Notes: generated by a model not told the origin, from the letters alone. 64,000 bases of DNA from an uncultured Oscillospiraceae bacterium (GCA_949737515.1 CATJCP010000201.1:471-64470); one strand, 5' to 3'; positions 32,552 to 46,001 are shown, counted from the stretch's first letter. A program made the numbers and translations.

Positions 32552-35500
32552 ATGAAGAAAAATTGGAAGCTGTTCCTGCTGGCGTTTACCGCCGCAGCGT
32601 CCAGCCTGTGTCTGACGGTGAACGCCGTGGACGTGCCCAGCATCCTGTCATCCTCCTGCCTCTGCGAGCAGCTGTGTACCAGCGAGAGCATAGACGGAAG
32701 CTGTCCGGTCTGCCGGGAAAACTACCATGATTGTAAGGGGACCGTTCGGTCCCCTTCCGAGGCTGCCCCAGGGGAATCCTCCCAGGGCGGTTTGGTCATT
32801 TACAGCTTTGAAAGCCTTGCCCCGGATGTGGCGGTCCAGCAGTCAGAGGGTACAGACCTTTCCTCCCTGCGGTTCCCCGTTTCCCTGCGGGGAGAGATCC
32901 GGAACCAGGGGGGAGAGCTGGAATCGGTCATGATTGCCGTCACTTGGGAGCTGGACCCCTCCGGCGGTGCGGCGGCCTTTCAAGGGGATGTGCCGGGGGA
33001 GTATCGCTTTATCCCCCTGATCCCATCCCGCTATTCGGTGGCGGGGGGAGTAGCCCTTCCCAGGATTACCATCCAGGTGGGCGGCGGGACGGGGACGCCC
33101 TCTGCCAGCAGCACAGCCTCCAGCAGCAGCACAGCTGCTAACAATATAGCTGCTGGCGTTTCCTCTGGGCAGCCCTCCTCTCAGGGCAGTTCCACTCCTC
33201 AGGTTTCCCAGGCCTCCCAACCCCAGAGTTCCCAGACCAGCCAGCCCGACCGGCTATCTGGCAGCGGCCCTGTGGAATTCCGGTTTGAAAAGGAAGCCTA
33301 TGAGGCCATGAGGGGGGCTCCCACCTTGACTGCTGCCGTCACCGTCTCCGGCGGTGCCTCCCTTGGGGGATCGGCGGTGCTGTACCTGGACAATCAGGAA
33401 ATGGAGCGGAAAAATGTCACCGTGGCCGGGGCCTATCCTTTTACCGTGAAGGTGCAGGACCTTCTGCCGGGCAAGCACGTTCTCCGGGGGGAGTACATTC
33501 CCGCCGGGGAGCGGTCTGCCGCTGCCATTGTCACCGCGGAGCTGGAGATCAAAGGTGGGGCCTTTACGGTTCAGACTATGCCCTCTGCTGAAAACCTGAC
33601 CTATGGCCAGACCCTTTCAGAATCCGAAATCAGTCCCGGGACCGTGGTGGACAGCCTTGGGGCGGCGGTGAAGGGGGAATTCCAGTGGAAGGACCCGGAT
33701 TATATGCCCAAAACAGGCCCTTCTGAGGTCTATCCAGTGGTATTCCGCCCCGAAGACAGCTCTTCCGGGGAAACCATAGAGATGCAGGTCCAGGTGGGGG
33801 TGCGTCCCGCTGTCCTGACCGTTACAGAGGTATCCAGTTACGGACGGGTATATGACGGCTCCCGCCGTTTGATGCGCTGCACCATTGGCTTTGAGGGGCA
33901 GCCGGAGGATGCCCGCGACGACCGGGTGGTCATTGTGGGGGAGGTGCTTCTCGGCAGCCCTGTGGGCGGCGGAGCCTCTGGCGACGTGGGCCGGTACAGG
34001 GCTGTGGATCTCCAGAACCTATTTCTGGCGGGCATGAACTCGGAAAACTACACCCTGGAGGGCGTCGCCGCCCTGGAAGATGTTCCCCTAGAGAGGGAGA
34101 TTGAGATCACCCCTGCCAGGCTGACCGTTTCCGTTAGGGAGCCTGTTGTCATCACCATGGGGGACCCCATGCCGGAGCTGGCCCAGGAGGACCTTTCCAT
34201 TTTGGGGTTGGTGCCTGGGGAGACTGACTCTGAAATCGACTTTGAGGAGATGTCCACCTCCTGCACCCCGGAAAACAGCCGGGAGCCGGGCAGCGGTACC
34301 ATAAAGGCTGAAGGCTTGGAGGCGGATAACTACATCATTGATTATGTCCCCGGTGAGCTCATTATTGAGGAAATGGTCTTTGATGGACTTCCCTATGATG
34401 TGGAGGGGGAAAAGGGGGCCAACGGCTGGTATACAGGGGAGATCACCCTGACCCCTAATGACAGCGCGGGACGGTTTCAGTTTATCAGCGTCAACGGTGG
34501 CAGATCCTGGGACGATTCTGTAACAATTGACGAGGAGGGAATTCATGAGCTCTCCATTCTGATGGGCACTGCCGCAGGCCGGGACGGCGTTTCTGTGGAG
34601 GTACCCGCCTTTTCCTATAAATTGGATGAAGAGGCCCCTCAGTTGGGTCGCATGAAAACCAATTACAGCGAGGACTGGACCAATGAAGATGCGTCCTTTA
34701 CCCTCTCCTGTGAAAATACCCCCGCTTCCCCGGTGACATTTTATGTCCGGGTCAACGGTGGGGAATGGAGCCCTATTTCAGGGGATACCTACACCACTGC
34801 CAGCATTCAGACAGTGGAATTCAAGGCTGTTTCGGAGAGCGGGCAGGAGAGCCCCCCCTCCCAGGAATACGAAGTGAAAATCGACAAGGCGGGGGCGGGG
34901 AAGCCCTCCTTGACCGGCGCATCCCCAAACTGGACGGCGGAGGAGGCAATCCTGACTGTCAAAGCCCCTTCCCCCATGCCGGAGAGCGGCATCAGGGAAT
35001 TTTCCTATTCCACCAATGGGGGAAAGCGCTGGAGTGACCCTATTGAATGGGAGGAGGATGGAGAGAACCGCTTTATCATCGACGAGGATGGGGACTATAC
35101 CAACAACATTCTGGTGCGGATTGTCACCAATGTGGGCAGCGAGGGGGAGAGCGTCCCCTATACGGTGAAGCTGGACAGCTCCGAGCCGGAGTTTTCCGTC
35201 TCTGCCGTCTCAGACGGGAAGTCCTATGAAGAGGGGGAACCCTCAGAACAGCCCATCACCTTTACCATCACCCCGGAGGAGGGGGAGGATATTCCGTCGG
35301 GCGTGACCTATTTTTACAGCACAGACGATGGCGCGCAGTGGACCGCCCTGGCCGGGAATCAGCTGATGATCCACCCCACGCAGACAGTCCAGAGGACCGC
35401 CTATACCTTTAAGGCAGTGACCGGGGCGGGGGTGGAAAGTGAGGAGGAAACCTTCCGGGTGCTGCTCTACCGCCCTTCCTTTACCCCGACCAGGGCGTCG

Positions 35501-38500
35501 GGACCTGCCGGTGGATGGAGCCGGGAACAGGTGACCCTCGCCCCCTCCGGGGGATTGCCCGAGGATCAGCTGGAAAGCTATGAATACTGCGTCACTGAGA
35601 CGGACCAGAAACCTGGAGAGGACGCAGAGTGGGAGGCCTTCCAGCGGGAGCTCAATGTCTACCGGGAGATGGACGCCTATTTTTGGTTCCGGGCAGTTTC
35701 CCTCTGCGGGACCAGAGGAGGGGAATCCTCCAGCCCGGTCCATCTGCAGATTGACCGGACGGCTCCAGTGATCCGCAGGGAGTCGGTGGCGGATATCACC
35801 GAAAATGCCGCTGTTATTTCCCTGGAAAGCGGGGAGTCGGGAGAGGTTTATTACTTGTTGGAATCAGGGGGTTCCTCTGAAGATGGTCCGGAAGCAGAGG
35901 AGATTGCAGAGGGAACCTCCACGGGGAAGATAGACGGACAGGCTAGTTTCCCCATTATGGGGTTGGAATCCGGCGGGGAATACACCGTTTCCTTGGTGGT
36001 AAAGGACCGGGCGGGAAACCTTTCCCGTCCCGCGCAGCTGAGCTTTGTCACCAAGCCGCCCATGCCCCAAGGGGTGTTGACCGAAATCGACTACCAGGAG
36101 GAGACCATCCGTTTTTCCTCCCAGTATGAGCTCAACGACAGCCCGGACTTCCCCGATGCAGGGGAAATTGTCAGCGGAACCATTTCCGCCTATATCCCGG
36201 GGCCGGGAGAACCGGCGCGGACTCTTTACCTCCGCTCCAAGGCGGAGGGGGATCTCCCTGCCAGCGATCCCATGGAGGTGACCATTCCGCCCAGGCCGGA
36301 AAATACCGCGTCAGTGGAGATTGATTACTATGGGGAGACCGTATCCCTGGAGCCGGGGATGCTCTACTCCTTTGACGGGGAGGAATTTGAGGAGGCGGAT
36401 GGCCCTGTTTCCATTTCCGGCCGGATACCGGAGGAGGATGAGCGTGTGACCCTCTCCTACCGCATGGCCGCCACAGAAACACAGTTTGCCAGCGCCATAG
36501 AGGGAATAAATATTCCCGCCCGCCCCGCTGCGCCTCCTGCCCCTGCCTTAAAAGAGCAGGGCAAGGACTCCATCACGCTGGACGGAGCGGAAAACGGCGC
36601 CTATTACCGCTGCGACGGCGGCAGTTGGCAGAAGAGCATGGTATTCCAAGGACTGGCTCCTTCCACTGCCTATACCTTCGAGGCCTATATTCCGGCCACA
36701 GAGCAAAACTTTTCCTCCCGGGAGAGCCAGTCCAGCGAATTCGCCACCCTGTTCGCCCTGCCGGAGGAGGACGCGGCGGCCATCAGCTTTGAGGATGAGA
36801 CCATTACCTACGACGGCCAGAAATACGAGGTCAGCCTGGACGAGTCCTTTGAGGATATCATTCGGGACGGCGGCTCTATTTCCGAATATATCCCTGCGGC
36901 GGGCAGCGGGGAGGGGACCTTATATATCCGCGCCAGAGGGGACCGGGAGACGTCTCCCAGCGAGGGGGAGGCCTTTTCCCTTCCGGCCCGTCCGGAGCCG
37001 CCGGTGATCCGGGCGGCGGCAGGGCTTTACAACATTATGGCAGTCTACGGAGATAACCAGGAGTTTTATCTCGCCGAGGCCGGAGACAGCGAGGACATCG
37101 ACTGGGATGAAGTCCGCTGGCAGGATTCCGGCAGCTTCCGGGGACTGGAAGCTGGGACGGAGTATGTCCTCTATGCTCAGGTGGCCTCTGGGGAAAACAG
37201 CTTCCGCTCCGAAAGGGTCCAGGCCCGAGTGAAGACCCTTGCCTCGGTCGCAGTACAGACCGGTGGGGAGGGGGAGGGCCAGGGAACCGCCTCTGTATTG
37301 GTCAACGGCACGCCCCTTTACGCCGCCGAGCCGGGAGACGTCCTGGAATGGCGGGCAGAGGGCAGCAGCGAGTATACCCCTTCCCTGTCTGTGGAGGGGA
37401 CCGCTGGGGAGATTTCCGGGCCGTACCGGGAGGGGGATGCTTGGATCTGGCGCTCCACTGTCTCGGATGAGGATCAGGAGATCGAAGGGACGGTGGACTT
37501 TGGCCAGAGGAAGCTTGTCTCGATACAGCCGACCGTAAAGACCGTATCGCTCACTGCCGGTTCCCAGGCCAATGAGAGCGTCAGTGCCATACAGGACCAC
37601 CTGGAGGGAACGGTGCCGGTGCAGGCCCTTTACGACAATGGGGCTTGGGAGGAGATGTACCTCCCCTATATCCTTTCGGAGGACTCCGAAGACTGGGAGC
37701 CAAAGGGCGGAGAGTACCTGTTTTCCGCCCAGTCGGAGGAGGACGGGGATATCTCCTGCGATGTGAAGGTGATCGTCCATCCGACAGTGGCTGCAGTGGA
37801 CGCGGGCGGGGACATCTTCCTCCCTGTCAGTCCAGAGGGATATTCCCTCTCTGATATCCCCCTGCCGGAGACAGCCAGAATCCGCTATTCCTCTGGAGAA
37901 GAGGAAGATCTGGATATCCAGTGGGACCGTCCCGCTGTCCCCGGCGGCTTTGGAACCCGGGAGGGAAGACTTTCCTTTATTGGGGAAATAGAGCTGCCGG
38001 AATGGGCTGTGGGGGAGGCTGAGGTCTCCGTCACCGTTGCGGCGGTGGAGCAGGAGGACATCAGCCAATTCCTTACCCTGTCCATAGAGGGGTGGGAGTA
38101 CGGCGAACCGGCCAAGGCGCCCAAGGCAGAGGCGGAACAGGGAGTTTCCCTAAATGACACCGCCTTTACATACACATACAGCGGCATTGCCCTGGACGGG
38201 AGTCCTCTGGAGGATTCGGAGGAGCCCCCGGAGAAGGCGGGGGTCTATACCCTTCGGGCAGTCTATCAGGACGCGGAGCAGGCGGGTTCCGTCACAGCGC
38301 CTTTGGAGATAAAGGCCGCGCCCCTGACCGTGGCGTCGGCGGAGCTGCCTGTCAAGGCCTATGATGGGCAGTCCGGCGCGGAAATTTCCTCTATTGCCCT
38401 GGATGGGGCGAAAAACGGGGATGACCTTGTACTCGGAAGGGACTTTGAGGCAGCGGGAATCTTCTTTGAGGATGGACAGGTGGGCTCCGCCAAGGCCGCA

Positions 38501-40333
38501 GAGGGCGGCCTCGTGCTCTGCCTCACAGGACGGGCCGCCAACTATACCATTGAGCCCTCCTTCCAGGCTGTGGGGGAAATTGCCCTGGGAGAGGGCCGGG
38601 ACAACCCTGCCTACCAGTCCACCCGCGCCCAGATGGAGGAGCTGCACATCATCACCAACCGGACCCCCACCATAGGGGATGTAAAGTTGCCCAAGGGGTG
38701 GAGCTTTACCAGAGATTCCTCTGAAAAGCTGCTGGGGGATAGCCAGTCGGAGTATCAGACGTTCTCCTTCCGGTATACCTCCCAGGATGAGAACTACGGC
38801 GATGTAACCGAGGATATCTCCATACCGGTTACGACGGTTGCCGCCGGCATTGAGGGCGGGGAGATACAGCTCCTTCGGCTGGAAAAGCTGGGGGAGGCCC
38901 GGCGGCTGCCCCGGGTCGGGGTTTCGGTACTTGGGGCGCAGCTTCCCGGCAGAACACCAAGCGCAGATGATTTCTATTGGTTCTCCCGCAACAATCTTGT
39001 GCGGGTCGAGGACGCCTACGCCACCCCCATGGGGGATGGGGTCGGCCTTCTGGAGCTCCGGTATGAGGGGAGCGCCGCACCGGCTGCCTGCCTATTGGTG
39101 GAGATCAACAGCGGCAATCCCTCCAAAAACACCATGGCGGATCTTCTGGAAATTGCGGAGGATATCAACCGTCTGTTGGGCAGCGCCAGCGGAAACTTAG
39201 AAGAAGAGGAGCGGGAATTTTTGCAGTCTGTGATCCAGGGGGCCTCTAAGGTACAGGGAGGCCAAACCCAAACCCTGACGCTGGAACAGGCAGAACTTTT
39301 AGATGAGTTCCAGCAAAAGGGCCTGAATGTGACGCTGGAAACCCTTCTGGAATCTGTCCCAGGCACGCCTGCACCAGCGGATGTTTCCGGCTGGGGGATT
39401 GGGGCCGCAGCCAGGGCCGAGGTTAACGACAAGGTGATGCTGGCCGTCACCCCGGTTCAGCCTACAGCGGGGTCGGCTATGGAGCTGGAGCTTGCGCTGA
39501 CCAAAAATGGCGCCCCTGTAGAGGGGGAACTTTCCAGCGCGGTTTTCCTGCGCATGACCCTCCCGGACGGCATCTCCGCAGACGCCATTGGGGAGATCCA
39601 TCAGGCCAAGGGGGAGAGGGCCAATGACTGGACCCCCATCCCCTTCCGAAAGGATGGGCAGGACATTACAGTCAAGCTGGACTCCCTGGAAAAAATACAT
39701 CTTCTGACAGGGGGGAACGGCGGGGACGCTTCCTTTGACAGCGTGCCGGAGGCTGCTGGTGAGACAGCTCTGCCCGCCGCCCAGGCGGATTTTTGGGATA
39801 CTGCTGCTTCAGTTGTCCGGGAGGCCTCCGAGGGCGGAACGGTACGCATCAACGCCAAGGGCTTTGACAGAATGCCGGTCTCCTTTATGGATACTCTGGG
39901 GGAGAATCCCCAGGTGGCGGTCCTGATCCATTGGAACGGTGGGGAGAACATTTTGATCCCCGCCGGCGAGGGCGAAACGCCGGAATCCGATAGGGCCTTC
40001 TATCCCTTGGCGTGGCTGGAGGAGCGGTATGGATCCGGGCAGGCCCATGGCCGATTGGCTGCAGGGGACGTTTGGTCCGTAAACGCGCCGGATGAGGCGG
40101 ATGTGGCCCTGACCGGGGAAACTGTCACCGGAAAGGAACAGGGAGTGGCTTCCTCCCCGCTGACAGAGAAGGAGCCCCAGGACAAGGATCCGGTATCGGA
40201 AAAGGACCTGCCCGCAGGAAGCAGCGCCGTGAAGACAGAAGATAAGAGATCGGCTGTGCCGCTGATACTGGCAGGGCTTCTGGCAGCCGGCCTGTGCGCG
40301 GTGTTTGTAATCCGGACCATCCGGCGCAGATAA
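32552..40333 (+). CDS. giant (2593 aa) secreted, C-terminally membrane-anchored surface protein with MBG(YDG/NY)-type, Ig/FN3-like and novel repeat modules
   Basis: Signal peptide MKKNWKLFLLAFTAAASSLCLTVNA and a Cys-rich motif. S/T/Q linker. MBG-like modules (LTYGQTL; RVYDGS...NYTLEG; ADNYIIDYVPGELII; KAYDGQ...ANYTIEP). FN3-like GLAPSTAYTFEAY and GLEAGTEYVLYAQ. C-terminal TM AVPLILAGLLAAGLCAVFVI plus RTIRRR. No LPXTG. Confidence 0.85.
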   Translation: MKKNWKLFLLAFTAAASSLCLTVNAVDVPSILSSSCLCEQLCTSESIDGSCPVCRENYHDCKGTVRSPSEAAPGESSQGGLVIYSFESLAPDVAVQQSEGTDLSSLRFPVSLRGEIRNQGGELESVMIAVTWELDPSGGAAAFQGDVPGEYRFIPLIPSRYSVAGGVALPRITIQVGGGTGTPSASSTASSSSTAANNIAAGVSSGQPSSQGSSTPQVSQASQPQSSQTSQPDRLSGSGPVEFRFEKEAYEAMRGAPTLTAAVTVSGGASLGGSAVLYLDNQEMERKNVTVAGAYPFTVKVQDLLPGKHVLRGEYIPAGERSAAAIVTAELEIKGGAFTVQTMPSAENLTYGQTLSESEISPGTVVDSLGAAVKGEFQWKDPDYMPKTGPSEVYPVVFRPEDSSSGETIEMQVQVGVRPAVLTVTEVSSYGRVYDGSRRLMRCTIGFEGQPEDARDDRVVIVGEVLLGSPVGGGASGDVGRYRAVDLQNLFLAGMNSENYTLEGVAALEDVPLEREIEITPARLTVSVREPVVITMGDPMPELAQEDLSILGLVPGETDSEIDFEEMSTSCTPENSREPGSGTIKAEGLEADNYIIDYVPGELIIEEMVFDGLPYDVEGEKGANGWYTGEITLTPNDSAGRFQFISVNGGRSWDDSVTIDEEGIHELSILMGTAAGRDGVSVEVPAFSYKLDEEAPQLGRMKTNYSEDWTNEDASFTLSCENTPASPVTFYVRVNGGEWSPISGDTYTTASIQTVEFKAVSESGQESPPSQEYEVKIDKAGAGKPSLTGASPNWTAEEAILTVKAPSPMPESGIREFSYSTNGGKRWSDPIEWEEDGENRFIIDEDGDYTNNILVRIVTNVGSEGESVPYTVKLDSSEPEFSVSAVSDGKSYEEGEPSEQPITFTITPEEGEDIPSGVTYFYSTDDGAQWTALAGNQLMIHPTQTVQRTAYTFKAVTGAGVESEEETFRVLLYRPSFTPTRASGPAGGWSREQVTLAPSGGLPEDQLESYEYCVTETDQKPGEDAEWEAFQRELNVYREMDAYFWFRAVSLCGTRGGESSSPVHLQIDRTAPVIRRESVADITENAAVISLESGESGEVYYLLESGGSSEDGPEAEEIAEGTSTGKIDGQASFPIMGLESGGEYTVSLVVKDRAGNLSRPAQLSFVTKPPMPQGVLTEIDYQEETIRFSSQYELNDSPDFPDAGEIVSGTISAYIPGPGEPARTLYLRSKAEGDLPASDPMEVTIPPRPENTASVEIDYYGETVSLEPGMLYSFDGEEFEEADGPVSISGRIPEEDERVTLSYRMAATETQFASAIEGINIPARPAAPPAPALKEQGKDSITLDGAENGAYYRCDGGSWQKSMVFQGLAPSTAYTFEAYIPATEQNFSSRESQSSEFATLFALPEEDAAAISFEDETITYDGQKYEVSLDESFEDIIRDGGSISEYIPAAGSGEGTLYIRARGDRETSPSEGEAFSLPARPEPPVIRAAAGLYNIMAVYGDNQEFYLAEAGDSEDIDWDEVRWQDSGSFRGLEAGTEYVLYAQVASGENSFRSERVQARVKTLASVAVQTGGEGEGQGTASVLVNGTPLYAAEPGDVLEWRAEGSSEYTPSLSVEGTAGEISGPYREGDAWIWRSTVSDEDQEIEGTVDFGQRKLVSIQPTVKTVSLTAGSQANESVSAIQDHLEGTVPVQALYDNGAWEEMYLPYILSEDSEDWEPKGGEYLFSAQSEEDGDISCDVKVIVHPTVAAVDAGGDIFLPVSPEGYSLSDIPLPETARIRYSSGEEEDLDIQWDRPAVPGGFGTREGRLSFIGEIELPEWAVGEAEVSVTVAAVEQEDISQFLTLSIEGWEYGEPAKAPKAEAEQGVSLNDTAFTYTYSGIALDGSPLEDSEEPPEKAGVYTLRAVYQDAEQAGSVTAPLEIKAAPLTVASAELPVKAYDGQSGAEISSIALDGAKNGDDLVLGRDFEAAGIFFEDGQVGSAKAAEGGLVLCLTGRAANYTIEPSFQAVGEIALGEGRDNPAYQSTRAQMEELHIITNRTPTIGDVKLPKGWSFTRDSSEKLLGDSQSEYQTFSFRYTSQDENYGDVTEDISIPVTTVAAGIEGGEIQLLRLEKLGEARRLPRVGVSVLGAQLPGRTPSADDFYWFSRNNLVRVEDAYATPMGDGVGLLELRYEGSAAPAACLLVEINSGNPSKNTMADLLEIAEDINRLLGSASGNLEEEEREFLQSVIQGASKVQGGQTQTLTLEQAELLDEFQQKGLNVTLETLLESVPGTPAPADVSGWGIGAAARAEVNDKVMLAVTPVQPTAGSAMELELALTKNGAPVEGELSSAVFLRMTLPDGISADAIGEIHQAKGERANDWTPIPFRKDGQDITVKLDSLEKIHLLTGGNGGDASFDSVPEAAGETALPAAQADFWDTAASVVREASEGGTVRINAKGFDRMPVSFMDTLGENPQVAVLIHWNGGENILIPAGEGETPESDRAFYPLAWLEERYGSGQAHGRLAAGDVWSVNAPDEADVALTGETVTGKEQGVASSPLTEKEPQDKDPVSEKDLPAGSSAVKTEDKRSAVPLILAGLLAAGLCAVFVIRTIRRR
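36074..37010 (+). repeat. three ~78-aa protein-level repeat modules inside the giant gene
   Basis: The three modules are IDYQEETIRF...ISAYIPGPGEPARTLYLRSKA...VTIPPRPE, then IDYYGETVSL...ISGRIPEEDERVTLSYRMA...INIPARPAAP, then ISFEDETITY...ISEYIPAAGSGEGTLYIRARG...FSLPARPEPP. The second and third are separated by an FN3-like module. Confidence 0.7.
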
Positions 40334-41353: not shown

Positions 41354-42118
41354 ATGATCAAAAAATTTAACACCACCATTACCCCCCTGCAGAAGGATCG
41401 AACCATCCACCTGTACCTTCCCCAAGGGTATGAGGATACAGACGAGAGGTATCCTGTCCTTTATATGTACGACGGGCATAACCTCTACCGGGACGAGGAC
41501 GCCACCTATGGAAAATCCTGGGGGTTTGAGACATTTTTGGACCAGTATGACAAGCCCTTTATCATGGTGGGGGTTGAGTGCGACCACGAAGGGGAGAACC
41601 GGCTGAGCGAGTACTGCCCCTACCGCCTGCCGGAATCCCATTTCGGCTCCCTCCAGGGGTATGGAGACGTGTTTATGGAGTGGGTAGTCAATGAGCTGAA
41701 GCCGCAGATAGACGCGCAGTACCGGACCATTCCCTTCCGGGAATGCACCATGATCGGGGGCGCGTCTATGGGCGGGCTGATGGCCCTGTACAGCGTGATC
41801 CGCTTTAACCAGTATTTTTCCAAGGCCGCCTGCCTATCCTCCTCAATTACGTTGTGTATGGACCACTTAAAGCAGGAGATAGACCGGGATACGGTTGACC
41901 CCGACACCAGGGTATATCTCAGCTGGGGGAGCAGGGAATGCCGGGGAAAGTCGGGGATGGCGGCAGCGTACCGCCGTCACCGGGAGCTGGCCCAAAGACT
42001 GAACCGCCATGGGGCGCGGACGCTCCTCAATCCTGTGAGCGGAGGCAGGCACTGCGAGGCAGATTGGGAAAAGCAGATCCCATTATTTATGGATTACCTT
42101 TGGAGACAGGGCGATTGA
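41354..42118 (+). CDS. alpha/beta-hydrolase, 'putative esterase' (esterase D/enterochelin-esterase-like) family
   Basis: RYPVLYMYDGHNLY, nucleophile elbow GGASMGGLMAL, C-terminal GGRHCE. Confidence 0.8.
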   Translation: MIKKFNTTITPLQKDRTIHLYLPQGYEDTDERYPVLYMYDGHNLYRDEDATYGKSWGFETFLDQYDKPFIMVGVECDHEGENRLSEYCPYRLPESHFGSLQGYGDVFMEWVVNELKPQIDAQYRTIPFRECTMIGGASMGGLMALYSVIRFNQYFSKAACLSSSITLCMDHLKQEIDRDTVDPDTRVYLSWGSRECRGKSGMAAAYRRHRELAQRLNRHGARTLLNPVSGGRHCEADWEKQIPLFMDYLWRQGD

Positions 42119-42183: not shown

Positions 42184-43464
42184 TCAGGGGGTCTGAAGGA
42201 TATATGGCTCCACCTGAGCCAGGACGCGCCGGTCTACCAGGGCGTCTACCCTGGTCCCCTTTTCAGTGTACTCCTCAGAAAATACCTTTCCCTCCTGGCG
42301 GATCAACCCCAGCAGCGCCCCCTTTTCAAAGGGGATTTCCAGCTGGAGGCGGCGCTGTGTCTTTTCCAAGAGGGCGGAGATCTTCTCCAAAAGCGCGTCA
42401 AACCCAAATCCTGTTTTGGCGGAGATCAGGGCAACCCTCCCGTTGACTGGAATGGGACATTCCTCAATGAGATCACACTTGTTCAGGACAGTCAAGACAG
42501 GGGTTTCCGCGAAGGCTTCGGCGTTGGGGCCCTTTGCCCTTTCACGCAGCTCCCGTATCACATCCTCTGTCACTGAGACCTGTTCCTGGACCTCTGGAGA
42601 GGAGACATCGCAGACATTGAGCAGCAGATCTGCTTCCAGGGCCTCCTCCAGGGTGGAGTGGAACGCCTCCACCAGCTGATGGGGCAGGCGGCGCACCAGC
42701 CCGACGGTGTCGATCAGCATCACAGTCCTCCCGTCGGGGAGGGAGAGGCCCCGGGAGGTGGGGTCCAGCGTAGCAAAGAGCTTATCCTCCGCCAATACCC
42801 CCGCGTCGGTCAGGGCGTTGAGGAGGGTGGACTTTCCCACATTGGTGTATCCCACAATGGCGACGCAGGGGACGCCGTTTTTCCTGCGCCGGCTCCGCAG
42901 CAGTTCCCGCTGGCTTTCTAGTTCCCGGAGCTGGGCCTCCAGGGCAGTGATCCTGCGGCGGACATGCCGCCGGTCGGTTTCCAGCTGGCTTTCGCCGGGG
43001 CCCCTGGTGCCAATGCCGCCTCCCAGCCGGGACAAAACGTTTCCCTTTCCCCCAAGACGCGGGAGGCGGTACTTCTGCTGGGCCAGCTCCACCTGGAGCC
43101 GCCCTGCGCTGGTGACGGCCCGTTGGGCGAAGATATCCAGGATCAGGGTGGTGCGGTCAATGACCTCCACTCCAGTGGCGTTTTCAATGTTCCGCACCTG
43201 GCTTGCGGAAAGCTCTCCGTCAAAGATGATCAGGTTGGCCCCATCCCCTTGGCAGAACTCCCGAACCTCTTCCAGGCAGCCAGAGCCGACGCAGGTTGCA
43301 GGATCGAAGCTGGCCCGCCGCTGGCTGATCTTTGCCGCCGTCTCCGCCCCCGCCGTTTCCGCCAGCTCGGAGAGCTCGTCAAGGGATAGGTTGACATCAT
43401 ATTCTCCAATATCGGCCGCCAGAAGGACAGCCCTTTGTTTTTGCTGTTGATTTGTTTCAAACAT
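42184..43464 (-). CDS. hflX: GTPase HflX (ribosome-splitting/rescue factor family)
   Basis: HflX N-domain (LSELAETAGAE..., DRTTLILDIFAQRA, RLQVELAQQKYRLPRL). G motifs GYTNVGKST, DTVG, NKCD. GGGAGGG RBS. Confidence 0.95.
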   Translation of the reverse strand: MFETNQQQKQRAVLLAADIGEYDVNLSLDELSELAETAGAETAAKISQRRASFDPATCVGSGCLEEVREFCQGDGANLIIFDGELSASQVRNIENATGVEVIDRTTLILDIFAQRAVTSAGRLQVELAQQKYRLPRLGGKGNVLSRLGGGIGTRGPGESQLETDRRHVRRRITALEAQLRELESQRELLRSRRRKNGVPCVAIVGYTNVGKSTLLNALTDAGVLAEDKLFATLDPTSRGLSLPDGRTVMLIDTVGLVRRLPHQLVEAFHSTLEEALEADLLLNVCDVSSPEVQEQVSVTEDVIRELRERAKGPNAEAFAETPVLTVLNKCDLIEECPIPVNGRVALISAKTGFGFDALLEKISALLEKTQRRLQLEIPFEKGALLGLIRQEGKVFSEEYTEKGTRVDALVDRRVLAQVEPYILQTP

Positions 43465-43511
43465 ATTGTTATCCCTCCCAATGGTTTACAGATTTCATGC
43501 TTCCAGTTTCT

Positions 43512-43553
43512 GCAGAAAAACAGGCCAAAATCCACGGGGTGGGTTTTGGCCTG
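43512..43553 (-). terminator. intrinsic terminator inside the hflX 5' leader (attenuator)
   Basis: Minus strand CAGGCCAAAA-(CCCACCCCGTGGA)-TTTTGGCCTG followed by TTTTTCT. Lies 48 nt upstream of the hflX ATG and about 250 nt downstream of the promoter. Confidence 0.7.
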
Positions 43554-43740
43554 CGGCGCATACGCTCATACAATTCATTGAAAGGGGGGTTCCGGCATGG
43601 CGCCACCCTGCCGCCTTTGGAAAAACCCGAAGGCATAGGTGCGCAAAAAACGCTGAGAAAGCCCTACTTCATCTGTATGAGTAACTGCAGGCACAACAAA
43701 CACACCCACCGAATGGTGGAAATGGTTTTATTTTACTGCA

Positions 43741-43764
43741 TTACCGATACAAACGAATCCGCAT
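43741..43764 (-). CDS. candidate 7-codon leader peptide MRIRLYR (uORF of the hflX leader)
   Basis: ATG CGG ATT CGT TTG TAT CGG TAA, preceded by AGGAGG at an 11-nt spacing and about 35 nt downstream of the promoter -10. Too short for any statistical support. Confidence 0.45.
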   Translation of the reverse strand: MRIRLYR

Positions 43765-43815
43765 TTTACAGCGTTCCTCCTGATTTTTATTGATTTGCTC
43801 TCATAGAGCTCCTCT

Positions 43816-43844
43816 ACAATACCATAAAGGGGAAGCTTTGTCAA
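43816..43844 (-). promoter_or_regulatory. strong sigma-A-like promoter of the hflX leader
   Basis: Minus strand TTGACA, 17 nt, TGG-TATTGT (extended -10). Confidence 0.65.
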
Positions 43845-43934
43845 CCTCTTTTTCAGCTGAATTTTAAGGGGGAGTGATTGGGCAGAAGAGGGGCCGCCCT
43901 GTCTCCAAGGGGGACAGGGCGGCCAGGGATATTG

Positions 43935-46001
43935 TTAGTATGTCAGTCTCACAACCTGATGGAGCTCAATCTCCGGCAGCTTTATTTTCCAGAAGCCGCC
44001 CTCTGCCTCTAAGGTAAGGGGCTTGGCCTCCGGATATACCAATTCTGCGCTCTTCAGCGCATACTTCTTCTGGTCTACCGCCAGGACGCCGCCGTCCACA
44101 GCCGGGGCGTCCCCGTTGAACCGTTCGGCGATATGGGATACCTCGTGGATGATCACTTCCTGATGGGCGGGCCGGTCGTAGGCCACAAACCCCAGGGCGT
44201 GATGATTCCCAGTCTTTAAGGCAATAGACGGTTCCTTCAGCGCCTCTGCGGTGATCTCCCCGAAAATGCCGTCTAAGTAGTTCAGCTCCGGCTCGGTCAT
44301 CATATCAAAGGCGGCGTAGAACACTTGTCCCTTGCCGAAAGCATTGAGCAGGATGGCGGGGTCGTTGGTGGGGGTCTTAGGCGGCGGGCACCACCAGTTG
44401 ACCCAGGTATTGGCGGTCAGTTCCGTGGCGGGGTAGACAAAATGGGTCAGCGCCTCTGCCCCGGCGGCCTTTACCTGGTAGTAAACGCTCCCCACAGGGG
44501 CGAAGGTCTTGCTGATGGACTTGAGGAGGGGGTGGCCCGAGGGCTCCAGATATCCGCCCCACTTGGCGGCCTTGTAACGGGTGATCTCTCCAATGTACCC
44601 AGCCCCCATCAGGTCGGCCAGGGCAAAGTTGGAGCGCATTTTCCCGTCCGCCTCAAACATACCGGTCAGGCCGGAGAGCACCAGATATCCGCCGTCCTCC
44701 ACAAAGGACTTCAGCGCAGCGTGGAGCTCATCGCTGACATGGAACACATTGGGCAGTATCACCATCCGGAATTTTTTGAGCATACCGGCGGAGACGTCCT
44801 GCTCTGGGACGATCTTCCAGGTCATACCGCTGGCGTCGCAGAGCTTCATGGCCCCCATAACCGCGGTGCGGTGGATGCTGCCCTGCTTTACCCGCCCGAT
44901 GGCGTTGGGCACCAGCACAAAGTGATTGTTGATGCTGGCGGAAACGTCGCTTTGGAGGATGGCAATATCGGCGATGACCTCCCGGTCAGAGAGGTATTTT
45001 TCAAATTTCTCCACTTCCTGGTAGGCGGCGCCCACATGCTGCGCCTCCTCGTGCTCCAGGGTGCCGTCAGGATGCTGGGAACCGGAGTACATGAATACCC
45101 GGCAGCCCTGAGCGGCGATCTGGGCGGCAGCCAGCTTGTAGATGTTCTTGCTGCGGTAGTTGTAGACCTCCGAAACGTCTCCCGGGCCCAGCTGCGGGTA
45201 TTGCCCTACAGCGGTATCCCTGGCGTAGGCCGCGGACAGCCAGTTCCCCGCAAAGGGCTCGGTAAACTGGTAATCCAGCTTATCCCGGATGGCCTTGCAG
45301 TACAGCGCCGCAAAGTTTACGGTGATCTTGATGTCCGGGACGTGCTTCTGCATGACGGCGCGGATGTCGTCCAGCATGGAGGCGGCGCTGCGGTCCAGGA
45401 AGTTGTTGATGTCCTGGTAGTGTTCGACAATCTCCTCATCCTTTTCGGGGAGGGGATAGCCGCACTCCCTCTCAAACTTGGCCCGGCAGGAAGGACAGTA
45501 GCAGAGGGACTTCCCGAAGATATCCAGGAACAGGGAATCTGGATGGTAGTTTTGGGCGATCTCATCCAACTGGTCCAGGACATACTGGCGGTATCCTGTC
45601 TCATAACAGGGCATCTTCCAGTGGGCTATGGGGGAGGAGCAGGTCAGGGGGGTGCCGTCCGGCTTTACAATGGCCCATTCGGGATGGGCTACCGGCGCAT
45701 AGGTGTCGTATTCCAGGCAGTAGTAGGCGTTGAACTCAATGTTGTTCCGGGTCAGGACCTCCCGCAGCTCCGCGATCCAGTCCCGGTCCCCCAGTCCGGG
45801 GTGCTTTTTGCCTACCTTGGTGTTGTAATAGCTGGCCCCCCAGTGGTCCTTGGTGTAGACCATCAGGCTGGTAATGTTGGCCTCTTTGAAGAAGGTCTCG
45901 TATTCCTTGGGGTCCAGCTTGTCGAGGGTGATGATGGGGGTATCGGGGGAATGGTGGTCCACCAGATAGCCCCGGTATGCCGATTTGTAGAGATTTGACA
46001 T
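43935..46001 (-). CDS. putative glycoside hydrolase (GHL6 / GH42-like TIM barrel with beta-galactosidase-trimerisation-like domain)
   Basis: YLVDHHSPDTPIITLDKLDPKEYETFFKEANITSLMVYTKDHWGASYYNTKVGKKHPGLGDRDWIAELREVLTRNNIEFNAYY matches the GHL6-type N-terminus. Last gene of the importer operon. Confidence 0.65.
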   Translation of the reverse strand: MSNLYKSAYRGYLVDHHSPDTPIITLDKLDPKEYETFFKEANITSLMVYTKDHWGASYYNTKVGKKHPGLGDRDWIAELREVLTRNNIEFNAYYCLEYDTYAPVAHPEWAIVKPDGTPLTCSSPIAHWKMPCYETGYRQYVLDQLDEIAQNYHPDSLFLDIFGKSLCYCPSCRAKFERECGYPLPEKDEEIVEHYQDINNFLDRSAASMLDDIRAVMQKHVPDIKITVNFAALYCKAIRDKLDYQFTEPFAGNWLSAAYARDTAVGQYPQLGPGDVSEVYNYRSKNIYKLAAAQIAAQGCRVFMYSGSQHPDGTLEHEEAQHVGAAYQEVEKFEKYLSDREVIADIAILQSDVSASINNHFVLVPNAIGRVKQGSIHRTAVMGAMKLCDASGMTWKIVPEQDVSAGMLKKFRMVILPNVFHVSDELHAALKSFVEDGGYLVLSGLTGMFEADGKMRSNFALADLMGAGYIGEITRYKAAKWGGYLEPSGHPLLKSISKTFAPVGSVYYQVKAAGAEALTHFVYPATELTANTWVNWWCPPPKTPTNDPAILLNAFGKGQVFYAAFDMMTEPELNYLDGIFGEITAEALKEPSIALKTGNHHALGFVAYDRPAHQEVIIHEVSHIAERFNGDAPAVDGGVLAVDQKKYALKSAELVYPEAKPLTLEAEGGFWKIKLPEIELHQVVRLTY

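Follow-up and report, generated by a model that had tools for sequence, protein, structure and literature searches.

A candidate uORF-dependent transcription attenuator upstream of hflX in one clade of Oscillospiraceae

A leader of ~350 bases lies on the minus strand directly 5' of hflX in the window, the 64,000-nt stretch of an uncultured Oscillospiraceae genome analyzed here (GCA_949737515.1, CATJCP010000201.1:471-64470), and we consider it probable on balance that this leader is a transcription attenuator of hflX with a stalled ribosome as its signal. The narrower proposal of an antibiotic as that signal is more tentative and falls just short of an even call. A sequence-only reading of this DNA had suggested a drug-inducible hflX controlled by ribosome stalling on a short upstream open reading frame (uORF). 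The uORF-dependent attenuator architecture held up, and the conserved R-x-R motif and the HflXr-like protein did not. All elements which that reading had listed were found on the minus strand where it had placed them, including the promoter upstream of hflX and the AGGAGG followed after 11 nt by the uORF. The leader elements are more than chance occurrences, since five other lineages of relatives have them too. They are, in order of transcription:

43816..43844, minus strand: sigma-70-type promoter, TTGACA(AA)-17-TG-n-TATTGT (scan, 10/12 matches plus the TG extension)
43797..43809, minus strand: stem-loop GCUCU-AUG-AGAGC at the very 5' end of the predicted transcript (minimum free energy [MFE] folds)
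43776..43781, minus strand: uORF Shine-Dalgarno sequence (SD) AGGAGG, 11 nt before the ATG and invariant in relatives
43741..43764, minus strand: 7-codon uORF ATG CGG ATT CGT TTG TAT CGG TAA (MRIRLYR), proposed sensor of ribosome occupancy
43668..43757, minus strand: predicted anti-antiterminator hairpin P1, pairing uORF codon 3 to the stop codon and the following bases with ...CTGCAGTTACTCATACAGATGAA (MFE folds)
43719..43706, minus strand: P1 apex hairpin CCACC-ATTC-GGTGG (terminator-like in a scan)
43674..43710, minus strand: putative antiterminator 5' strand GGTGGGTGTGTTTGTTGTGCCTGCAGTTACTCATACA, overlapping the 3' half of P1
43600..43644, minus strand: variable central hairpin, a spacer at the antiterminator apex (local fold in every lineage)
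43576..43586, minus strand: anti-SD CCCTTTCAATG (also CCCUUUCAAUG), 11 pairs with 43483..43473 in the MFE fold
43538..43572, minus strand: putative antiterminator 3' strand TGTATGAG... plus terminator 5' arm GCAGGCCAAAACCCACC
43514..43554, minus strand: predicted intrinsic terminator, 15-pair stem (43554..43521), loop CCC, then TTTTTCT; -22.1 kcal/mol
43473..43483, minus strand: hflX ribosome-binding region CATTGGGAGGG (also CAUUGGGAGGG), with SD GGGAGGG at 43479..43473, 8 nt before the ATG
42184..43464, minus strand: hflX (426 aa), encoding a ribosome-splitting GTPase with a short NTD2 loop (TIGR03156, 427.7 bits)

The promoter was one of 2 sites returned by a scan of 800 nt, versus 0.8 expected from shuffles, and TTGACAAA together with most of the extended -10 element is invariant in all seven aligned leaders. 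A hairpin occupies the 5' end of the predicted transcript in relatives as well, at the same place and with other sequences (GCUCC/GGAGC, UUCCGC/GCGGAA, and UCUGC/GCAGA); it may act as a transcript stabilizer. The 346-nt leader as a whole is strongly structured, with an MFE of -126.8 kcal/mol compared with -99.9 +/- 5.8 kcal/mol for shuffled sequences (z = -4.6; 0/100 shuffles as good). A permissive cmscan of positions 43200..44200 against Rfam (E <= 10), riboswitches and T-box included, placed no family above noise. The best match, the terminator against RF02862, reached 20 bits relative to a gathering score of 48.8 and reflects generic terminator resemblance only. Resemblance to a riboswitch or T-box covariance model, which would have spoken against the proposed attenuator, was thus not found, and a T-box or riboswitch leader was rejected on the same result.

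All six lineages retain the same layout of AGGAGG, a spacer of exactly 11 nt, ATG, six codons, and TAA. The spacer is constant in length and variable in sequence, and the neighboring unpaired bases vary while the SD, spacer length, ATG, and TAA stay fixed. A spacing of 11 nt is on the long side for an SD. The encoded peptides are as follows:

Window and L002 group: MRIRLYR
L001: MRIRLYK
L116: MRIRLYQ
L090: MINRLYQ
L092/L099: MIIYLYQ

The peptide is therefore conserved only as M-x-x-x-L-Y-x, with positions 2, 4, and 7 varying freely; codon 2 shows synonymous changes (CGG/CGC/CGT) as well as replacements. Four lineages begin with MRI, one with MIN, and one with MII. Between the sister leaders of L001 and L092, which are 86% identical elsewhere, 5/18 uORF bases have changed, leaving none of the three basic residues in place. 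ErmDL is a macrolide-sensing leader peptide with a +x+ motif whose minimal core is MRLR, and MRIR (window, L001 and L002 groups, L116) places an R-x-R just as far from the start. The sequence-only reading had emphasized this motif and had suggested examining it in the leaders of relatives. There the uORF proved conserved and the motif did not: R-I-R is present in 4/6 lineages and gone from MINRLYQ and MIIYLYQ, so that it cannot be the conserved basis of sensing. Since R-x-R is lost in two lineages that keep the architecture, it is at most a lineage-specific addition, through which macrolides could be an extra trigger in the MRIR lineages.

The same peptides bear on an arginine-starvation attenuator of the trp/his type, in which Arg supply would be read through MRIRLYR. 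In the window's uORF, Arg indeed accounts for three of the six sense codons that follow the ATG, but one Arg remains in MINRLYQ and none in MIIYLYQ with the same RNA architecture, and hflX has no link to arginine supply. We rejected this explanation, which is contradicted by the Arg-free variant and retains a negligible probability.

P1 begins inside the uORF: its downstream arm, ...CUGCAGUUACUCAUACAGAUGAA / ...GCAGUUACUCAUACAGAUGAA, is predicted to pair from codon 3 onward and to leave the start codon outside. RNAalifold predicted P1 independently from the six lineages (34 pairs, beginning at codon 3 and with the AUG free), and a covariance model of the SD-to-P1 region, R1, scores 124 bits at 43664..43783. 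In the full alignment, paired cells make up 90.5% of the P1 core helix, 93% of the terminator, and 81.4% of the whole tested structure; when partners were slid by 1-3 columns as a control, about 40-54% of cells were paired for the whole tested structure. Covariation is thin across the six lineages. Changes in P1 are mostly one-sided with the pair retained, two terminator pairs are changed on both sides (A-U to G-C and A-U to C-G), and in the antiterminator as drawn on the window four pairs are changed on both sides, a number not above the shuffle control.

The invariant uORF codons ATT/CGT/TTG/TAT sit in helix P1, and codons 2 and 7, which vary, are left mostly unpaired. RNA structure alone could therefore explain the conservation of these codons, and coding and structural constraint are inseparable at them. 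This pattern suits a leader in which the uORF is incidental, its open frame persisting only through base pairing, and whose RNA either has a protein, small-molecule, or tRNA ligand or is a terminator-ended small RNA. The strong overall fold is likewise compatible with such a leader, and a ligand pocket is conceivable in the central region. Yet that region, the sole place where a pocket could lie, shows the lowest conservation of the leader along with large insertions and deletions, the Rfam scan was empty, and AGGAGG, the exact spacer, the ATG, and the TAA all persist in six lineages amid varying unpaired neighbors. We regard an incidental uORF as improbable.

Within the preferred reading of a ribosome-sensing attenuator, the 3' half of P1 has a second partner. 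It comprises the near-invariant block GGUGGGUGUGUUUGUUGUGCCUGC...CUCAUACA, which is complementary to UGUAUGAG plus the terminator 5' arm GCAGGCCAAAACCCACC; GTGGGTGTGTTTG.TGTG.CTGC is nearly invariant among the aligned leaders and occurs once only in the window. The sequence-only reading had noted a long-range pair and a possible alternative pairing of GGTGGG with CCCACC. The former is present as CTCATACA (43681..43674) with TGTATGAG (43572..43565), 100 nt apart, and its place is taken by CTTATA/TATAAG in L002 and L116. The latter turned out to be part of a far longer antiterminator duplex, which in the window amounts to -36.2 to -40.0 kcal/mol (z = -4.4 versus shuffles) and which beats dinucleotide shuffles in 6/6 lineages (z from -2.1 to -4.4; 0-10/300 shuffles as good). 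The central hairpin at its apex varies in sequence and length among lineages, with ~60 extra nt in L002. The CCACC-N4-GGTGG hairpin that had been seen at the P1 apex is also there; a 27-nt fragment with one extra flanking base pair folds at -8.4 kcal/mol. We considered this hairpin and its GU-rich tail as an early terminator and set that aside, as the tail has no U-run and the hairpin is more simply part of the antiterminator block. A NusG TTNTTT pause motif after P1 was seen by eye in the window and L001 and was not evident in L002 or L090.

The strong terminator that had been noted before hflX is present. A simple terminator scan missed it, probably because of a C/A mismatch four pairs from the loop. 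Promoter and terminator are both conserved in the six lineages.

Alternative pairing was then modeled for five lineages at the moment of decision, with the terminator 3' arm hidden and with pairing forbidden under a ribosome footprint on the uORF. With the footprint, 12-15 of the 16 bases of the terminator 5' arm paired with the block that lies 32-55 nt beyond the uORF stop codon in 5/5 lineages, counted for at least one stall position per lineage. Without it, the 5' arm never paired with the block. In equilibrium folding with the whole terminator present and the uORF blocked, the terminator still formed in 4/5 distinct lineages; the switch would thus have to be kinetic, like that of other attenuators. 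The mutually exclusive antiterminator and terminator folds that the earlier reading had anticipated thus appear in truncated transcripts in all five lineages; at equilibrium, four of the five keep the terminator.

We infer translation of the uORF, use of the terminator, the nature of the stalling signal, and a kinetic competition that may run as follows. Transcription would start ~7 nt after the -10 element, and the SD and 7-codon uORF would emerge first, so that a ribosome can load. If it finishes and leaves quickly, codon 3 to the stop codon and the following bases would pair downstream to form P1, which would lock away the block GGUGGGUGUGUUUGUUGUGCCUGC...CUCAUACA; the terminator 200 nt downstream could then form, and transcription would stop 49 nt before the hflX start codon. 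A ribosome parked on the first uORF codons would instead block the lower P1 stem. The freed block would pair with the emerging UGUAUGAG and the terminator 5' arm GCAGGCCAAAACCCACC, and in most lineages also with the anti-SD, the terminator would be unable to fold, and RNA polymerase would read into hflX.

The anti-SD adds a second predicted layer. Its helix with the hflX SD contains G-U pairs and encloses the terminator, and the hflX SD has a predicted unpaired probability of 0.004 in the full-length leader. An equivalent helix was found by eye in L001, L002, and L092, with only a weak counterpart in L090; the relatives have CCA:UGG where the window has CAA:UUG. In the antiterminator duplex the anti-SD segment pairs with the P1 tail instead of the SD, which would free the hflX SD, and SD sequestration is probably an added layer of hflX control. 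In equilibrium folds the hflX SD stayed paired whether or not a stalled ribosome was imposed, and we therefore do not claim relief of the translational layer.

This helix could also be read as an RNA thermometer or as purely translational control, with CCCUUUCAAUG melting on heat shock and the terminator serving only as an insulator. The 11-pair anti-SD:SD helix with its G-U pairs and low unpaired probability would suit such a device, as would the equivalent helices in 4/5 lineages compared and the link between hflX and heat shock in E. coli (PMC6310831). It leaves the conserved uORF, P1, and antiterminator block unexplained, however, the anti-SD of L090 is weak, and the terminator precedes the SD, so that transcription must be released first. 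We consider this explanation very improbable, somewhat more so than an incidental uORF.

The gene behind the leader starts with an ATG at 43464 and was correctly named in the sequence-only reading; its product carries the Pfam domains GTP-bdg_N, GTP-bdg_M, and MMR_HSR1. hflX is monocistronic, since the next gene (an esterase, 41354..42118) is convergent. HflXr is defined by an NTD2 loop ~2 residues longer than that of E. coli or Listeria HflX, and mycobacterial HflX has eight extra residues in this loop (Koller et al., PMC9638945). We applied this loop-length criterion to distinguish HflX from HflXr, a clade whose genomes usually carry a second hflX of the short-loop type. Over residues 101-220, the window's protein aligned to E. 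coli HflX gap-free (120 versus 120), while Listeria HflXr (8a57) was 2 residues longer over the same stretch (126 versus 124) and Mycobacterium smegmatis HflX had 8 additional residues. The two extra Listeria residues probably lie in the NTD2 loop, judging from PMC9638945. Overall bit scores were non-discriminating (269 to HflXr, 261 to E. coli HflX, and 328 to mycobacterial HflX). A gap-free loop of E. coli length indicates an ordinary, short-loop HflX, and loop length is identical in leaderless orthologues. By its sequence the protein does not look like HflXr, contrary to what had been supposed. In Listeria, the short-loop paralogue gives no resistance even under rli80 control (PMC6310831), which makes the claim of a resistance gene weaker than the claim of induction by stalled ribosomes.

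Distribution of the leader was analyzed in a one-genome-per-species scan of 80 hflX loci, all from Oscillospiraceae, Ruminococcaceae, and allies. It was present in only the two closest loci (84% identical protein, mouse-gut MAGs); in the others, hflX lies close behind another gene or has a short untranslated region. The gene before a leaderless hflX is often secA or Hsp33-like, the latter judged from its C-terminal peptide. Further leaders came from protein look-ups in a large assembly collection, giving six lineages in all (the window, L001, the L002 group, L090, L092/L099, and L116), whose HflX proteins are 82-87% identical to the window's. L087 and L088 (75-78% identity) have plain promoters and no leader. 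When covariance model R1 was run against the window and 81 other loci, its sole hit was the leader of the window itself, with none among orthologues of 58-78% identity; so narrow a family rules out deep covariation statistics. A metagenome scan for the block TTCCACNNNNNNGTGGGTGTGTTTG gave 6 loci, of which one (L082) is a real leader, with the same sequence as the L002 leader over the stretch shown, and the rest are chance matches in coding DNA. As the leader is absent from orthologues of 78% identity or less and R1 has no further copies, it appears to be a recent invention of one genus-level Oscillospiraceae clade. The leader travels with hflX, and its upstream neighbor differs: a GHL6 hydrolase in the window, a CmpB-type ABC protein in L002 and L116, and a biotin/lipoate ligase in L092/L099.

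Several known systems share this design. The sequence-only reading had rightly cited Listeria HflXr: in Listeria monocytogenes, the rli80-hflXr (lmo0762) attenuator is read through when ribosomes stall (Duval et al. 2018, PMC6310831). There, as here, an hflX-family gene follows a constitutively transcribed leader in which a small ORF (translated in Listeria) lies in an anti-antiterminator, followed by an antiterminator and an intrinsic terminator. The rli80 ORF, however, has 14 aa with RLR, compared with seven codons, no RLR, and R-I-R in some lineages only; the Listeria protein has the HflXr extension rather than a short NTD2 loop, and the host here is an Oscillospiraceae gut commensal. No homology between rli80 and this leader was found, a result that rests on the Rfam scan and is subject to rli80 and uORFC-6-1 being in Rfam 15. 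The uORFC-6-1 motif before hflX in Bacillales is a candidate uORF overlapping a conserved RNA structure and has been proposed to sense stalled ribosomes (Breaker laboratory, PMC8632094). rli80 and uORFC-6-1 motifs are confined to Bacillales and Listeria (PMC6310831, PMC8632094), whereas the leader described here, compared with uORFC-6-1 by description only, has no RLR and is restricted to a single Oscillospiraceae clade.

The closest parallels in peptide sequence are leaders of ARE-ABCF genes. The cplR uORF has the consensus MR[I/M], with MRI in Clostridioides difficile, and the vmlR uORF of Bacillus subtilis is MIN (PMC10201436); these are the same first residues as in our MRI and MIN lineages, respectively. 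Both leaders show lincomycin-induced read-through via initiation-stalled ribosomes, and cplR also responds to retapamulin (PMC10201436, PMC9226507). As is predicted here, the uORF lies in the first hairpin, which is the anti-antiterminator, another hairpin sits at the antiterminator apex, and alongside the terminator the main SD is sequestered, giving transcriptional and translational control. The differences are that cplR and vmlR uORFs have three codons and those here four more, seven in all lineages; that the cplR terminator stem itself hides the SD, where we find a separate anti-SD upstream of the terminator; and that the gene controlled is a ribosome-splitting GTPase. The leader is most likely analogous to, and not homologous with, rli80-hflXr, uORFC-6-1, and the ARE-ABCF leaders. 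The most likely trigger would be an inhibitor that halts ribosomes at initiation or immediately afterward, such as a lincosamide, a pleuromutilin, or streptogramin A.

The main rival to an antibiotic signal keeps the same RNA switch and replaces the drug with the cell's own stalled or slowly recycled ribosomes, arising from heat, starvation, damaged ribosomes, or poor termination or recycling. By removing the ribosome parked on its own leader, HflX would then close a homeostatic feedback loop. This fits a short-loop, housekeeping-type HflX whose NTD2 loop is indistinguishable from that of leaderless orthologues, it fits a peptide free to vary at positions 2, 4, and 7, and translation defects and (p)ppGpp also feed into VmlR induction (PMC9226507). 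A normal ribosome, however, should be done with seven codons well before transcription reaches the terminator 200 nt downstream, so that efficient stalling needs a specific cause, and the uORF heads MRI and MIN coincide with those of drug-sensing uORFs. We judge this homeostatic signal unlikely, though far less so than a thermometer or an incidental uORF.

A switch of this kind is already known from Listeria, Bacillus, and Clostridioides; what is new here is the sequence family and its position on an ordinary-type hflX. A literature search found no published description of such a leader before hflX in Clostridia. The evolutionary account, in which a short-loop housekeeping HflX has recently come under a stalled-ribosome sensor in one genus-level clade while the sensor peptide changes rapidly among heads familiar from drug-sensing uORFs (MRI/MIN/MII), is speculative, and we hold it with low confidence.

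The attenuator reading predicts that abundant uncultured mouse-gut Oscillospiraceae switch on ribosome rescue when translation is blocked, which would be relevant to how commensals ride out exposure to lincosamides, macrolides, or pleuromutilins. If induction is real, ordinary HflX may contribute to lincosamide, pleuromutilin, or macrolide tolerance in these bacteria, which would contradict the Listeria result that only the long-loop HflXr does so. Alternatively, the leader may be a self-correcting gauge of stalled-ribosome load that is cleared by its own product. These lineages offer a natural test of whether short-loop HflX has any protective role and, with MRI, MIN, and MII on near-identical RNA scaffolds, of how drug specificity arises from the first residues of a mini-ORF.

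The gene neighbourhood of hflX was compared among the leader-bearing lineages, and an esterase gene on its downstream side recurred:

41354-42118, plus strand: PF00756 esterase gene, convergent with and downstream of hflX

This synteny is kept in most of these lineages (the window and the relatives' hflX loci L090, L092, and L116), whereas the upstream neighbour of hflX varies among them. L092 and L099 carry two additional genes, HTH and DUF2178, as an insertion that separates hflX from the esterase gene. A seventh leader lineage is possibly represented by L115 (positions 1-291), whose HflX is 82% identical to that of the window; its contig covers the region from terminator to hflX and ends short of the uORF region. 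The L115 terminator is the same as that of the leader family (CAAGCCAAAACCCGCCCCGGTGGATTTTGGCTTGTTTTTTT), with ~160 nt extra between terminator and hflX and a different Shine-Dalgarno (SD) sequence (GAGGAGG).

Within the window terminator, positions 43521-43553 gave a match on both strands to the Rfam model of Enterococcus sRNA_1300 (RF02862), at 19-20 bits, which is below the gathering score of 48.8. Homology to sRNA_1300 was rejected, since the match is sub-threshold and confined to the terminator hairpin of the model, indicating generic terminator likeness. Another inverted repeat stands between the GHL6-family hydrolase gene and the hflX promoter:

43890-43925, minus strand: perfect GC-rich inverted repeat GGCCGCCCTGTC...GACAGGGCGGCC, directly after the hydrolase stop codon

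It carries no U-run and presumably serves as terminator or stabiliser of the hydrolase gene.

Elsewhere in the window lies a very long ORF:

32552-40333, plus strand: ORF of 2593 aa

By eye, it looks like a putative giant surface protein: the N-terminus resembles a signal peptide, the linkers are long and rich in Ser/Pro, and the C-terminus appears to form a hydrophobic anchor.

Short uORFs also precede more distant hflX orthologues. At L020 and L022 (both 2915-2960; 58-59% identity), a 4-codon uORF, ATG CGC CTG TTC TAA (MRLF), with the SD AAAGGGG, lies inside a hairpin ~80 nt upstream of hflX and is preceded by a promoter (TTGACT...TATAAT); neither leader has an obvious terminator. MRLF is a further MR-headed mini-ORF preceding hflX. 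L004 (2890-3010), from a mouse-gut Oscillospiraceae MAG (64% identity), has a 23-codon uORF, MRIRRYMGAVLSQKEERNTALLE, with AAGGAGG 12 nt upstream, ending 22 nt before hflX. The L004 leader has neither a terminator nor a match to R1, the covariance model of the SD-to-P1 region. The beginning of this uORF resembles MRIRLY of the window uORF, and it could be an independent or much-diverged ribosome-sensing uORF.
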